Below, piece by piece: positions 18,861 to 43,884 of a stretch of 64,000 nt of DNA (position 1 is its first letter; each line of letters begins with the position of its first letter). Below the pieces are notes generated by a model. That model made no database searches. It saw only the letters and a list, made by a program, of their open reading frames with translations, and had not been told where the DNA came from. The stretch lies in the NCBI RefSeq assembly GCF_053078305.1, contig NZ_CP166879.1; one strand, 5' to 3'. The translations under genes were made by a program, and so were the position numbers.

Positions 18861-19811
18861 TCAGCCTGCGATAGCACCAACAACCTGTAATACTTCGTCA
18901 CGCGCCTGTTCTGGTTTTTCACTATCAAGCCAGTGAACCCCTTCCCAACCACGCAGCCAGGTTATCTGCCGCTTCGCCAACTGTCTCGTGGCGCAAACAC
19001 CTCGATAAACCATTTCATCGTATGAGATTTCGCCTTCAAGGTAAGACCACATCTGGCGATAACCCACGCAACGAATGGAAGGCAAGTCCGTATGCAAATC
19101 TCCTCGGGCAAAAAGCGCCCGGACTTCTGCTTCAAAACCTGAAGCCAACATCTGATGAAAACGCTGCTCAATGCGTTGATGGAGCAGTTCACGGCTCGCC
19201 GGGGCGATGGCGAACTGATGCACCTGATACGGTAGAGCGTCTCCTGACGTTTGCGTCAGTTCCGTTAAAGTTTTACCCGAAATGAAAAAAACTTCCAGTG
19301 CCCGGGAAAGCCTTTGTGGATCATTTGGATGAATCCTTGCTGCCGCAACCGGATCGATCTCCTGAAGTTGACGATGCAATGACTCCCAACCTTGCTCTGC
19401 CGCCTGTTGCTCAATTCTGGCCCGTACTTCCGGGTCTGCCGACGGTAGCGGCGACAACCCTTCCAGCAATGCCTTGAAATACAACATCGTACCGCCCACT
19501 AACAGTGGGATCCGCCCCGCCGCGGTGATATCGGCCATTTCCGCCAGCGCATCGCGGCGAAAATCAGCAGCCGAGTAAGCCTGCGACGGATCGCGAATAT
19601 CCAGCAATCGGTGCGGCGCGGCGAGTAACTCTTCAGCGTTCGGCTTCGCCGTCCCGATATCCATCCCTTTGTAAATAAGGGCAGAATCAACGCTTATCAA
19701 CTCTACTGGTAAAATTTTACGCAGCTCAATGGCTAACGCCGTTTTACCGGAGGCCGTCGGCCCCATCAAAAAAATCGCCTTAGGCAGGCTCGCCTTACTG
19801 ATATCACTCAT
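18861..19811 (-). CDS. miaA: tRNA dimethylallyltransferase MiaA
   Basis: ORF 316 aa; P-loop GPTASGKT; overlaps the mutL stop by 8 nt. Confidence 0.95.
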
Positions 19812-21651
19812 CTTTCAGGGCTTTTATCGCCGGATGTAAATCAACAGATTGTAACAGACCACCCGGCGGCGTTTTCACAAGTTGCGGACATAACCGTTCC
19901 ACGTCCGCCAGCAGGGTTATGGCCTGTGCCATTGACCACTGCGCATGTTCGCTCATCAGATTTCGTGCAATCCACTGCGCAATATTGCCAGGTTCGAATA
20001 CGGACTGCTTCGCCAGGTAGCCTATCAGTTCAGGAATCAAGATTTGTAAATTTTGTTGGCGTAAGGGTAAAGGCACGGCCCTGATGGTCACATGCTGTGC
20101 ATCTGACTGGAAATCAATACCCAATTCCGCCAGGGCAGACTGCGCTTTTTCTAATGCCGATTTTTCTTCGCCAGAAACTTTTAGCCGCAACGGAATCAGC
20201 AACGGCTGGGCGCAAACGGGCGCTTCACCCGGCGTCAGTTGTACCTGACGCAGCCAACGTTCTGCCACTGGCAAGGCTAAAAGTGAAATGTTGCCGTCGC
20301 GCTCCAGCAACGCACAGTCGGAATGGACGATAGTCAGTACCCGACCAAAACTCTGACTGTTCGCCGCAAGTGCAGGTTCCTGCGGTTCCGGCGCTTTTGG
20401 TTTTTGCATCGGCGCGGGCGTTTGCAAAAGCTGGCGATACACTTCACCTTGCTGTTTCTGGTAACCTGGCTGCGCATTCGGCCAGGGGGCAGCCGGACGA
20501 CTGCCTGATGCTGGCGCAGGAGTGTAGCGCGGAGCTACTGGCTCACGAACTGCCGGTTCAGCAAAGTGATTGCGCCCCGCCGCCACGCGGTTTTCCGGAA
20601 TGGCACGCGGTGCAGGTTGTGGTTCATCGTCCAGCGGTAGCGGCGTTTCCAGTTGCTGTTGTAGCACGCTCAGCACGCCCTGATAGATAAAATCATGCAC
20701 CAGACGCGACTGATGGAAACGCACTTCGTGTTTGGCGGGGTGTACGTTGACGTCCACCTGATGCGGGTCGATCTCCAGATACAGCACAAATGCCGGTTGT
20801 TGATCGGCCCCCAGTTTGTCTTCACAGGCCTGGCGGATCGCATGATTGATCAGGCGATCGCGCATCATGCGACCATTCACGTAGCAATACTGAATTTCTG
20901 CCAGGGCGGGCGTGGTGTGATTCGGATCGGCCACCCAGCCGCGCAGGGTGAGATCGCCGTGTTGCCATTCAATCGCCAGCGCTTGTTCGAGAAAAGCGGT
21001 GCCACAAATCGCGCCTAAGCGCCGTTCTTTTTGCCCGCCTTCCGGCACTGCGCGGTACTGACGCACAATTTTACCGTTATGCGACAGGTTGATCGTGACG
21101 TCGAAACGCGCCAGCGCAATGCGGCGGATGATTTCATCGATATGGTTAAATTCGGTTTTCTCGGTGCGCAGGAATTTGCGCCGCGCCGGGGTGTTGTAGA
21201 ACAGATCCAGCACCTCCAGCGTCGTTCCCACCGGATGCGCCGCCGGTTTAACCGTCACGTCCATATCGCGCCCTTCGGCATAGGCCTGCCAGGCTTCCTG
21301 CTGTTCTGCGGTGCGTGAAGTGAGCGTCAGGCGGGAAACCGAACTGATACTCGCCAGCGCCTCACCGCGAAAGCCAAGGCTGATAATGGCTTCGAGATCG
21401 TCCAGAGAGGCGATTTTACTGGTGGCATGACGAGCCAGCGCCAGCGCCAGCTCATCTTTTTTGATACCGCAGCCGTTATCACGAATGCGGATAAGTTTCG
21501 CCCCACCGCGTTCGATATCAATATCGATACGCGTCGCACCTGCATCGAGGCTGTTTTCCACCAGTTCTTTGACTACCGACGCAGGTCGCTCGACCACCTC
21601 ACCTGCGGCAATCTGGTTCGCCAGTTGTGGCGGTAAGACCTGAATTGGCAT
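19804..21651 (-). CDS. mutL: DNA mismatch repair protein MutL
   Basis: ORF 19804..21654; GHKL ATPase N-domain; start at second ATG (21651) for 615 aa. Confidence 0.95.
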
Positions 21652-21660
21652 CAATCGTCC

Positions 21661-22998
21661 TTAGTTTGGCAGCGTGCGATCTGGCGTCGTCACCGTACTG
21701 GCAGTTTGTGCCGTTGCCCCCTGCGGCGCAGATTGCATCGGATGCGCAAGGAAATAATTGCGCAGGCCTTTGTAAATGGCTTCTGCCAGCTGTTGTTGGT
21801 AATCGTCGCTCGCCAGCAAACGTTCTTCGCTGTTGTTGCTGATAAAACCGGTTTCGACCAGTACTGATGGGATATCCGGCGAACGCAGAACGCCAAGGCT
21901 GGCATGTTCTGGCCGACGTTTATGTATTTCGCCAATGCGTTGCAACTGACTGATCATACTGGTCGCTACATCATACCCTACCCGCTGGGAATGACCGAAC
22001 TGTAAATCCAGCACCGCCTGGCTTAAATAGGGGTCAGACTGACTGTTCGCCAGCACATCACCCGCCCCGCCCAGCAGCTCCGACTGTTTCTCGTGCTGCT
22101 CCAGCCAGCTGGCCATTTCGCTGTTGGCGCGACGGTTAGAGAGCACCCATACGGAAGCGCCAGTCGCACTGCGGTTCGGTGCGGCATCAGCGTGAATCGA
22201 CACGAGGAAATTGGCGTTTTGCTTACGTGCCACATCACTGCGCCCCATCACCGAGATAAAGTAATCCCCGTCACGGGTTAAAACGCCTTTAAACATCGGA
22301 TCGTCATTGAGCAAAGTACGCAATTTACGCGCGATGGCGATGGTAACATTTTTCTCCCGCGTACCACCGGGGCCGATAGCGCCAGGGTCCTGACCGCCGT
22401 GTCCGGCATCAATAGCGATGATAATTTTATCGCCAGTGTTAGCCGTCGCGCGCGCTGCCGGACGCGTTACCGTATTACTGCTGATAACACCCGTAGTGCG
22501 GTTACTTTCCATTTTAAACGGATTGCGCGCCGGTTCGCTGACGCGCGGTGCGACAACCGCAGGCGTTTCAACGCGTTTCGCAACCACGGGCGGCGGAGGA
22601 GGCGGTGGCGGCACATCGGCGTTAATCGTAAAGACGACAGTGTAATTGCTGCCATTCTGCCGCTTCACCGCTTCGGTTTTACCGTTTTCGGTAAGATCGA
22701 CCACCAGCCGTAGCGTTTGTGCATCTTTAGGCGTTCCAGAGCGAATCGCCTTCACCAGATTATTGCCGCTGAACAACAACGGCAGTCCCTGAATCACGCC
22801 CGTTTGTTTGATATCGAGCGCCACGGTGCGTTTGCTTTGATGGCTAAACGCATAATCAGGATCGCCAATAAAACTCAACGTTATCCGCGCCTGTTGATTA
22901 CCGTTAGAAACCTGAATATCAGAGAGCGTCGCGGCACCCACCTGCGCGCACAGCAGCAGCAACGTCGCTACCAACCAATTTCTGATGCGATACATCAT
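21661..22998 (-). CDS. amiB: N-acetylmuramoyl-L-alanine amidase AmiB
   Basis: ORF 21661..23013; start at ATG 22998 (MMYRIRNW...) for 445 aa; signal peptide, AMIN domain, eight-proline linker, amidase_3 domain. Confidence 0.93.
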
Positions 22999-34887: not shown

Positions 34888-35865
34888 TTATGCCCGGTCA
34901 ACGCTAAAGGCGATGACTTCAGCCAGTGTCTCCGCACCCAGCGCCAACATCACCAGACGATCAACGCCCAATGCCACGCCGGAACAGTCAGGCATACCGA
35001 CTTTCAAGGCTTCAATCAGATTCTGGTCAATGGGGTGCTGCGGCAAACCACGCGCCGCGCGCTTACGGTTATCTTGTTCAAAGCGTTGTTGCTGCTCACG
35101 GGCATCCGTCAATTCATGGAAACCATTCGCCAGCTCAATACCTTTATAATAAACCTCAAAGCGTTCAGCGACCCGATGATCTTCGGTACTGATTTGCGCC
35201 AGTGATGCCTGGCTGGCTGGAAAGTGGTACACAAAGGTCGGTTTTTCTTTACCAATATTTGGCTCTACGCCAAAGGTAAACAGCAATTGTAGCAACGTGT
35301 CGCGGTCTTCTTCGGTATCAGCAACATTGCTCAAATCCAGTTTCGCTGCCACTTCCCGCAGTTGCGTTTTGTCGGCAGAGAGTGGGTCAATTTCCAGATA
35401 ACGCAAGAAAGCTTGTTGATAAGAAAGGCTTTCTGCTGCCGGGCAGTCCAGCACCTGTTGTAAGAGATCGTCCACCTCGTTCATCAACCGGTACATATCA
35501 TAGTGCGGTCGATACCACTCCAGCATAGTGAACTCAGGGTTGTGATAACGCCCCATCTCTTCATTACGAAAGCTGCGGCACAGCTGGAATACCGGCCCAC
35601 AACCGGCAACCAGCAGGCGTTTCATATGGTATTCCGGGCTGGTCATTAACCAGAGATTCATCCCCTGCGAATGCCCGGGGCCAACGAAACGTGTCTCAAA
35701 CGGGACCAAATGAATATCGGTTACCGTCGCCTGGCTCATACAAGGCGTCTCCACCTCCAGCACTCCACGATCGGCAAAGAAACGACGGATCTCCGCCATA
35801 ATCGCCGCGCGTTTTAATAAGTTAGGAATGGATGCGCTCGGCTGCCAGGATGCCGTTTCGCTCAT
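34888..35865 (-). CDS. epmA: EF-P lysine-34 (R)-beta-lysine ligase EpmA (truncated LysRS paralog)
   Basis: ORF 34888..35910; start at ATG 35865 ([10 protein letters not shown]...) for 325 aa; class-II aaRS catalytic core. Confidence 0.92.
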
Positions 35866-42247: not shown

Positions 42248-42814
42248 TTACTTCACGCGAGAGACGTATTCACCAGAGCGGGTATCCACTTTGATGACTT
42301 CGCCGATTTGTACGAACAGCGGAACTTTAACCACAGCGCCAGTAGACAGGGTAGCCGGTTTGCCGCCAGTACCTGCGGTATCACCTTTCAGGCCCGGATC
42401 GGTATCAACGATTTCCAGTTCAACGAAGTTCGGCGGAGTAACGGAGATCGGCTGACCATTCCACAGAGTTACGATACACTCTGCCTGATCCAGCAGCCAT
42501 TTAGCGTTGTCGCCAATTGCTTTTGCGTCAGCAGACAGCTGCTCGAAAGTTTCGTTGTTCATGAAGTGCCAGAACTCACCGTCGTTGTACAGGTAAGTCA
42601 GGTTCATATCGACAACATCAGCGCCTTCAGCGGAATCAGTAGATTTGAAGGTTTTTTCTACGCGAGTACCGGTCAGCAGACGACGCAGTTTAACGCGAGC
42701 AAATGCCTGGCCTTTACCCGGTTTTACGAATTCACTCGCTTCAACCGCGTAAGGTTCGCCGTCTAACATGATTTTAAGACCAGCACGAAAATCGTTGCTA
42801 TAGTACGTTGCCAT
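42248..42814 (-). CDS. efp: translation elongation factor P
   Basis: ORF 188 aa; conserved loop KPGKGQA containing the modified Lys34. Confidence 0.96.
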
Positions 42815-42855: not shown

Positions 42856-43884
42856 ATGGCGCATATTGTAACCCTAAATACCCCATCCAGAGAAGATTGG
42901 TTAACGCAACTTGCCGATGTTGTGACCGATCCTGATGAACTTCTGCGTCTTTTGAATATAGACGCGGAGGAAAAACTGTTGGCCGGACGCAGCGCCAAAA
43001 AGCTGTTTGCCCTGCGTGTGCCCCGCTCATTTATCGATCGAATGGAGAAAGGCAATCCGGACGATCCGCTTTTGCGTCAGGTACTTACCTCGCAAGATGA
43101 GTTTGCCATCGCGCCCGGATTCTCCACCGACCCGCTGGAAGAACAGCACAGCGTAGTGCCTGGTTTGTTGCATAAATACCACAACCGGGCGCTTTTGCTG
43201 GTCAAAGGCGGCTGCGCGGTAAATTGCCGCTATTGCTTCCGTCGCCACTTCCCCTATGCCGAAAATCAGGGCAACAAGCGTAACTGGCAAACTGCACTTG
43301 AGTATGTTGCTGCGCATCCGGAACTGGACGAGATGATTTTCTCCGGCGGCGATCCGCTGATGGCGAAAGATCACGAGCTGGACTGGTTGCTCACACAACT
43401 GGAAGCCATCCCGCATATCAAACGTCTGCGGATTCACAGCCGTCTGCCGATTGTGATCCCGGCACGTATCACCGAGGCGCTGGTTGAACGCTTTGCCCGT
43501 TCTACGCTGCAAATCTTGCTGGTGAATCACATCAATCATGCCAATGAGGTAGATGAAACATTCCGTCAGGCGATGGCTAAGTTGCGCCGGGTAGGCGTTA
43601 CTTTGCTGAACCAGAGCGTTCTGTTACGTGATGTGAACGATAACGCACAAACGCTGGCAAACCTGAGTAATGCGTTGTTCGATGCCGGCGTAATGCCGTA
43701 TTACCTGCATGTGCTCGATAAAGTACAGGGCGCGGCGCATTTTATGGTGAGTGATGACGAAGCACGGCAGATTATGCGTGAGTTGCTGACACTGGTGTCG
43801 GGATATCTGGTGCCGAAACTGGCGCGAGAAATTGGCGGCGAACCCAGCAAAACGCCGCTGGATCTCCAGCTACGCCAGCAGTAA
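42856..43884 (+). CDS. epmB: EF-P beta-lysylation lysine 2,3-aminomutase EpmB (radical SAM)
   Basis: ORF 342 aa; radical-SAM motif CAVNCRYC. Confidence 0.93.
   Translation: MAHIVTLNTPSREDWLTQLADVVTDPDELLRLLNIDAEEKLLAGRSAKKLFALRVPRSFIDRMEKGNPDDPLLRQVLTSQDEFAIAPGFSTDPLEEQHSVVPGLLHKYHNRALLLVKGGCAVNCRYCFRRHFPYAENQGNKRNWQTALEYVAAHPELDEMIFSGGDPLMAKDHELDWLLTQLEAIPHIKRLRIHSRLPIVIPARITEALVERFARSTLQILLVNHINHANEVDETFRQAMAKLRRVGVTLLNQSVLLRDVNDNAQTLANLSNALFDAGVMPYYLHVLDKVQGAAHFMVSDDEARQIMRELLTLVSGYLVPKLAREIGGEPSKTPLDLQLRQQ

Follow-up and report, generated by a model that had tools for sequence, protein, structure and literature searches.

The locus raises two questions: why the amidase AmiB carries eight consecutive prolines between its two domains, and whether it matters that the genes for elongation factor P (EF-P) and its modification enzymes EpmA and EpmB lie nearby. 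The first-pass annotation of this DNA had drawn attention to both features in the window, that is, in the whole analysed stretch of 64,000 nucleotides (contig NZ_CP166879.1 of assembly GCF_053078305.1). Our answer, to which we assign a probability of about 0.85, is that the run is a polyproline spacer in a disordered linker, that its translation depends on EF-P, and that the proximity to efp and epmAB reflects a gene order shared within the Enterobacterales, not a functional cluster.

The amiB gene, encoding the N-acetylmuramoyl-L-alanine amidase AmiB, occupies positions 21661-22998 on the minus strand, with the ATG at 22998 and 445 codons followed by a stop. The protein matches the NCBIfam AmiB equivalog NF007751 along its entire length (residues 1-445 of 445) with a score of 977 bits, the cut-off being 532. 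The septal peptidoglycan-targeting AMIN domain is encoded at 22618-22920 (minus strand, residues 27-127). Its Pfam match, PF11741, covers residues 27-112 (profile positions 1-88 of 101), and the remainder is assigned by the strands of an AlphaFold2 model, built on an alignment of 44 sequences, in which the AMIN beta-strands extend to residue 127 with pLDDT above 90. The Amidase_3 catalytic domain (PF01520, E=2.8e-48) is encoded at 21760-22419 on the same strand and corresponds to residues 194-413; in the model the confident amidase fold starts from residue 192. Residues H200, E215 and H269, which we take to be the zinc ligands of AmiB, are invariant among the 44 aligned sequences. The protein thus has an AMIN domain, an Amidase_3 domain and conserved catalytic residues.

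The two domains are separated by a disordered linker (22426-22617, minus strand, residues 128-191) that is 16% proline and has the proline run as its first segment. The AlphaFold2 model shows no secondary structure at residues 128-191, and the pLDDT is below 50 at residues 140-188. According to the model, the run starts three residues past the last AMIN beta-strand. The only solved chain of E. coli-type AmiB, the crystal structure PDB 8c0j, spans residues 190-422, and in a cryo-EM study of the FtsEX-EnvC-AmiB complex an AmiB linker (residues 136-175 in that study) was left unbuilt and termed flexible (PMC10214136).

The run itself lies at 22588-22611 on the minus strand. The plus strand here reads GGGCGGCGGAGGAGGCGGTGGCGG, and its reverse complement yields eight in-frame proline codons, CCG CCA CCG CCT CCT CCG CCG CCC, which are residues 130-137 of AmiB, with GTG (Val) on either side of the block. 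Both the coordinates and the frame given in the first-pass annotation, as well as the placement of the run between the AMIN and amidase domains, are confirmed. A stall site is expected to contain at least three in-frame proline codons in a real open reading frame, and what is found here is eight CCN codons in the frame of an AmiB equivalog. Across all six frames of the window there is no other run of at least five prolines, and among its approximately 59 gene-sized open reading frames the PPP motif is found in AmiB alone. An independent-codon model predicts about 2e-5 runs of this kind in the window, and a run of eight was reached in none of 100,000 shuffles, whether of the whole AmiB or of the linker alone. 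On these figures we reject a chance origin of the run. It has been described as the longest series of adjacent proline codons in E. coli (Martens et al. 2015, PMC4402525).

The efp gene, encoding EF-P of 188 amino acids, is located at 42248-42814 on the minus strand. Its product scores 253.6 bits with NCBIfam TIGR00038 (cut-off 185.8), contains three Pfam EF-P domains and, as read from the sequence, has Lys34 within a PGKG loop. EF-P also carries a diproline motif of its own, VTPPNF. The epmA gene (34888-35865, minus strand) encodes the EF-P-(R)-beta-lysine ligase of 325 amino acids, with 604 bits for the equivalog NF006828 (cut-off 264). The epmB gene (42856-43884, plus strand), encoding a radical-SAM lysine 2,3-aminomutase, is divergent from efp and has 533 bits for the equivalog TIGR03821 (cut-off 369). 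The earlier positions for all three genes turned out to be exact to the base, and all three products are above their equivalog cut-offs. (R)-beta-lysine is the product of EpmB; EpmA joins it to Lys34 of EF-P, and the modified EF-P speeds formation of the Pro-Pro peptide bond. The window thus holds a beta-lysylation system in the sense of equivalogs of EF-P, EpmA and EpmB together with a modifiable Lys34. The wording "both modification enzymes" used in the first reading is right in that EpmA and EpmB are present, but the count of two understates the pathway, which has a third enzyme, the hydroxylase EpmC; no gene for it was noticed in the window.

That the run stalls ribosomes and needs EF-P had been proposed from the sequence, with ribosome profiling at the amiB site suggested as a check. 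Such profiling has already been published, and its outcome is as predicted. In wild-type cells, a sharp, dramatic peak of ribosome footprints was observed at amiB codons 130-138 (Martens et al. 2015, PMC4402525). For amiB, seven positions (PPP in six cases, PPV in one) are listed in Supplementary Data 3B of Sieber et al. 2024 (PMC11611912) with asymmetry scores, which set the ribosome occupancy before the motif against that after it. These scores are 1.0-1.24 in the wild type and 6.7-10.5 in the efp deletion strain; they are 1.0-2.9 in the absence of efpL, encoding the EF-P paralog EfpL, and 3.8-6.7 in the efp deletion strain over-producing EfpL (PMC11611912). The amiB range in the efp deletion strain is comparable to the scores of other PPP entries, namely 10.8 for cadC, 8.2 for uvrB and 17.1 for valS (PMC11611912). 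Hence, according to the published dataset, asymmetry at the site increases upon deletion of efp (PMC11611912). The supplements of Elgamal 2014 contain no amiB entry. Both the stalling at the amiB run and its dependence on EF-P are already known from the literature. A literature search for AmiB protein or reporter levels in efp, epmA or epmB mutants found none. Doerfel et al. reportedly included AmiB in their in vitro tests. Where translation of a gene is weak, a pause does not necessarily lower its output in proportion.

The strong EF-P-dependent asymmetry in the efp deletion strain (PMC11611912) can be read as a sign that the run is kept for the stalling itself, either to provide time for folding or export of the AMIN domain, or to let the supply of AmiB track EF-P activity and the growth state. 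The position of the run is consistent with that. Polyproline motifs of E. coli are enriched between residues -2 and +9 relative to domain ends, and a role in co-translational folding has been proposed for them (Qi et al. 2018, PMC5811046); the AmiB run, predicted to start three residues past the last AMIN strand, falls in this zone. On the other hand, the wild-type asymmetry is only about 1.0-1.2, so that the loss of ribosomes there is small when EF-P is present. Moreover, we know of no physiological condition in which EF-P activity is limiting, and we count this against a throttle. On balance, we regard maintenance of the run for the sake of pausing as quite unlikely.

To describe the conservation of the run, we considered one genome per species in the Enterobacteriaceae, finding the loci via MscM, whose gene is situated midway between amiB and efp. 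A run of 4-10 prolines is present in all 46 species loci that include amiB, and in all 46 its position is identical, directly after FTI[ND]AD[AVE]. The most frequent lengths are seven (13 species) and eight (11 species), followed by six (8 species), five (7 species) and nine (5 species), while lengths four and ten are represented by one species each. By genus, the run contains 5 prolines in Salmonella, 5-6 in Klebsiella, 6-9 in Enterobacter, 8 in Kluyvera and 7-10 in Raoultella; within the Escherichia and Citrobacter clusters the length is 3-10. The mix of CCN codons (CCG, CCA, CCT, CCC) is distinct in nearly each of the 46 species. Since the run occupies the same site in 46 species and its codons are shuffled, it seems to be maintained at the protein level and not to be a recently slipped DNA repeat.

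At larger distances the run disappears. We took the best 150 representatives of clusters at 50% identity; 140 of them retain the DxGHGG motif, and only four of these 140 have a run of at least four prolines, these four being 73-79% identical to the query AmiB. The linker is hypervariable across the AmiB family. In the Yersiniaceae, AmiB is 68% identical to the query and its linker has nothing beyond PP; this protein is 568 amino acids long and contains C-terminal LysM repeats (GCA_002858785.1, GCA_900130115.1). The AmiB linkers at three Kluyvera loci contain, in addition to the eight prolines, a long low-complexity insert further along, rich in Ser, Gly and Asn, which shows that the remaining part of the linker evolves freely.

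Within E. coli, amiB is present, and annotated under this name, in 5,425 of 5,426 complete genomes, as assessed with a 401-bp probe. A 104-nt probe derived from a shorter amiB allele matches 5,363 E. coli genomes and divides them into two groups. About 851 complete genomes (16%) carry the shorter allele, with at least 95% identity to this probe; among them are Nissle 1917, EC958 (ST131) and ATCC 25922. In the other genomes among the matches listed, the alignment span is longer by 6 nt, the length of the eight-proline allele. The sequenced shorter alleles have ADA-PPSPPP-M in place of AD[VA]-PPPPPPPP-V, that is, they are shorter by 6 nt and yield AmiB of 443 amino acids; the loci of ATCC 25922, SSGNw1 and Nissle 1917 are of this form. 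Hence PPSPPP is a natural variant with a weaker motif. Synonymous differences between E. coli strains are observed inside the eight-proline run.

Another type of variation affects the linker downstream of the run. In a rare AmiB of 414 amino acids from E. coli and Shigella, residues 153-183 are gone and all eight prolines are kept. One such variant was aligned, and it has an in-frame deletion of 31 distal-linker residues with the eight-proline run intact. Further short variants, of 412-420 amino acids, from E. coli, Shigella sonnei and Shigella flexneri, likewise retain the run.

A separate case is E. coli D3 (NZ_CP010140.1, 188721-192013). Here IS1 adjoins amiB truncated soon past the linker, the remnant is annotated as "AMIN domain-containing protein, incomplete", and on the other flank of IS1 lies cpdB, likewise truncated. 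Since amiB is cut by IS1, it is dispensable in strain D3.

The variation of the length between 4 and 10, the PPSPPP allele in about 16% of E. coli, and the absence of the run in the Yersiniaceae and in more distant AmiB proteins imply that any structural requirement for the run is loose. The same observations bear on the idea of a selected pause. It is true that the run is kept in 46 of 46 Enterobacteriaceae species in spite of its translational cost. However, its length differs between species from 4 to 10, PPSPPP is a common allele in E. coli, and AmiB of the Yersiniaceae and of more distant bacteria folds and works without the run.

One may go further and assume no selected function at all, the run being a neutral low-complexity expansion of CCN codons that are prone to slippage; the linker would be free of constraint, and the weak expression of AmiB together with its redundancy with AmiA and AmiC would make the run tolerable. 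This would agree with the length polymorphism, both between species (4-10) and within the Escherichia and Citrobacter clusters (3-10), with the hypervariability of the linker and the rarity of runs of at least four prolines among the best 150 representatives (four of the 140 retaining DxGHGG), and with the disruption of amiB by IS1 in E. coli D3. It fits poorly with the presence of at least four prolines at the identical site in 46 of 46 species, their codons being thoroughly shuffled, and with the fact that variants lacking 31 linker residues still keep all eight prolines. Hence we consider neutrality an unlikely explanation, and a loosely constrained spacer remains our preferred one.

We now turn to the second question, the proximity of amiB to efp, epmA and epmB. 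The distance from amiB to epmA is 12 kb and that to efp is 20 kb, so that all four genes are within about 21 kb. In E. coli Nissle, the order is epmB/efp-ecnAB-sugE-blc-ampC-frdDCBA-epmA-yjeM-mscM-psd-rsgA-orn-3x tRNA-Gly-queG-nnr-tsaE-amiB-mutL-miaA-hfq. According to the Nissle annotation, some 20 unrelated genes lie between amiB and the EF-P genes, distributed over both strands and several transcription units; hence amiB neither shares a transcription unit with the EF-P genes nor is directly adjacent to them. The mutL gene (19804-21654) begins about 9 nt past the amiB stop (21661), and its operon is common to miaA and hfq.

Among the Enterobacteriaceae loci, 43 contain amiB and epmA, and 32 contain amiB and efp, the gap between amiB and efp being 15.6-20.2 kb. 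In the Yersiniaceae genome GCA_002858785.1 the order is mutL-amiB-tsaE-nnr-queG-orn-rsgA-psd-mscM-epmA-frdABCD-blc-ecnAB-efp-epmB. This interval is more compact than the one in E. coli, with yjeM, ampC and sugE not called there. Thus the co-location does not track the proline run, being retained both in this one run-less Yersiniaceae genome and in Nissle 1917 with its PPSPPP. Since the order is the same in this Yersiniaceae genome, where AmiB has no run, the linkage is independent of the run and most simply is a coincidental shared gene order. At that, the E. coli BW25113 proteome contains 79 PPP motifs, and hence one EF-P client near efp in a 64-kb window is unremarkable.

The first reading had implied that it is significant to find efp, epmA and epmB near amiB; given the intervening genes and the order in the Yersiniaceae genome, this implication is not supported. 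A functional cluster, in which the strongest EF-P client would be co-regulated or co-inherited with efp, epmA and epmB, could be suggested by the location of the four genes within about 21 kb and by the AmiB run being the longest in E. coli (PMC4402525). Against that stand the list of genes in between, from nnr and tsaE through queG, three tRNA-Gly, orn, rsgA, psd, mscM, yjeM, frdABCD and ampC to blc, sugE and ecnAB, and the identical order in the Yersiniaceae genome with run-less AmiB. Further, strains such as Nissle 1917 keep the order despite the weaker PPSPPP motif, and with 79 PPP motifs in the proteome a client close to efp is unsurprising. Functional clustering is therefore rejected and has, in our opinion, next to no chance of being correct. 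The only coincidence left, and a mild one, is that the client near efp carries the longest run. The co-location of amiB with efp, epmA and epmB is probably coincidental.

Taken together, the best description of the data is an ordinary one, a polyproline spacer within a linker that requires EF-P for its translation. The eight prolines open the disordered linker that tethers the septum-targeting AMIN domain to the catalytic amidase domain. Most likely they act at the domain boundary as a stiff spacer in the polyproline-II conformation; from general properties of this conformation, eight residues would make it about 25 Å long. Given that formation of the Pro-Pro peptide bond is slow, ribosomes stall on the proline codons of amiB, and this stalling would be a by-product of the spacer. 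Efficient read-through needs EF-P, which in E. coli is activated at Lys34 by EpmB and EpmA. The dependence on EF-P may thus be the cost of the run and not its purpose.

A more elaborate form of the pausing idea can be formulated as well. The run would be a selected EF-P-dependent throttle at the AMIN boundary, tunable by its length (4-10) and coupling the supply of the septal amidase to EF-P activity, with PPSPPP as a weaker setting and with a possible Rho-dependent polarity on mutL-miaA-hfq. In principle, a stall at codons 130-137 of amiB in the efp deletion strain could uncouple translation from transcription and hence lead to Rho polarity on these downstream genes. No mention of amiB, mutL or hfq is made in Elgamal 2016, which deals with EF-P and Rho polarity, and thus the polarity idea is without direct support. 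We consider the combined scheme very unlikely.

The amiB run, its status as the longest one in E. coli, the pause and the dependence on EF-P all have been published, and the neighbourhood of efp, epmA and epmB is well known. The present analysis makes modest additions: a run of variable length is a family-wide feature of the Enterobacteriaceae, PPSPPP is a common allele within E. coli, and in the Yersiniaceae the synteny exists without the run. These additions may be useful for the design of linker swaps or for the use of amiB as a natural EF-P reporter. If the pause were selected for folding, for export or for polarity on mutL-miaA-hfq, the status of a translation factor would be tied to cell separation or to mismatch repair; the present results give no pointer to such a role.

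It remains to compare the AmiB run with known systems. In the case of CadC, the copy number of the sensor is set by EF-P; unlike CadC, the AmiB run has no regulatory consequence to our knowledge. Like the PPP motifs of CadC, ValS and UvrB, AmiB has at least three in-frame prolines and an asymmetry that increases several-fold in the efp deletion strain. It differs from all three in that its run consists of eight prolines, the longest in the E. coli proteome (PMC4402525), and is situated in the disordered linker of a periplasmic enzyme. A second parallel is offered by the domain-boundary polyproline motifs of Qi et al. 2018 (PMC5811046), as the AmiB run, predicted to start three residues past AMIN, is within the zone from -2 to +9. 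Their work is a statistical one, in which pausing is put forward as an aid to co-translational folding. AmiB orthologs outside the Enterobacteriaceae resemble it in the AMIN-linker-Amidase_3 architecture, in being encoded in a tsaE-amiB-mutL operon context and in the conserved catalytic residues, but their linkers have no run beyond PP or PPP, and the Yersiniaceae protein, of 568 amino acids, adds C-terminal LysM repeats. Finally, the Pro-rich region of TonB and the hinge of OmpA are, like the AmiB run, Pro-rich non-globular segments that join two envelope or periplasmic modules. In TonB and OmpA these segments are formed by alternating X-Pro repeats, whereas in AmiB a short homopolymeric run is followed by about 55 more disordered residues.
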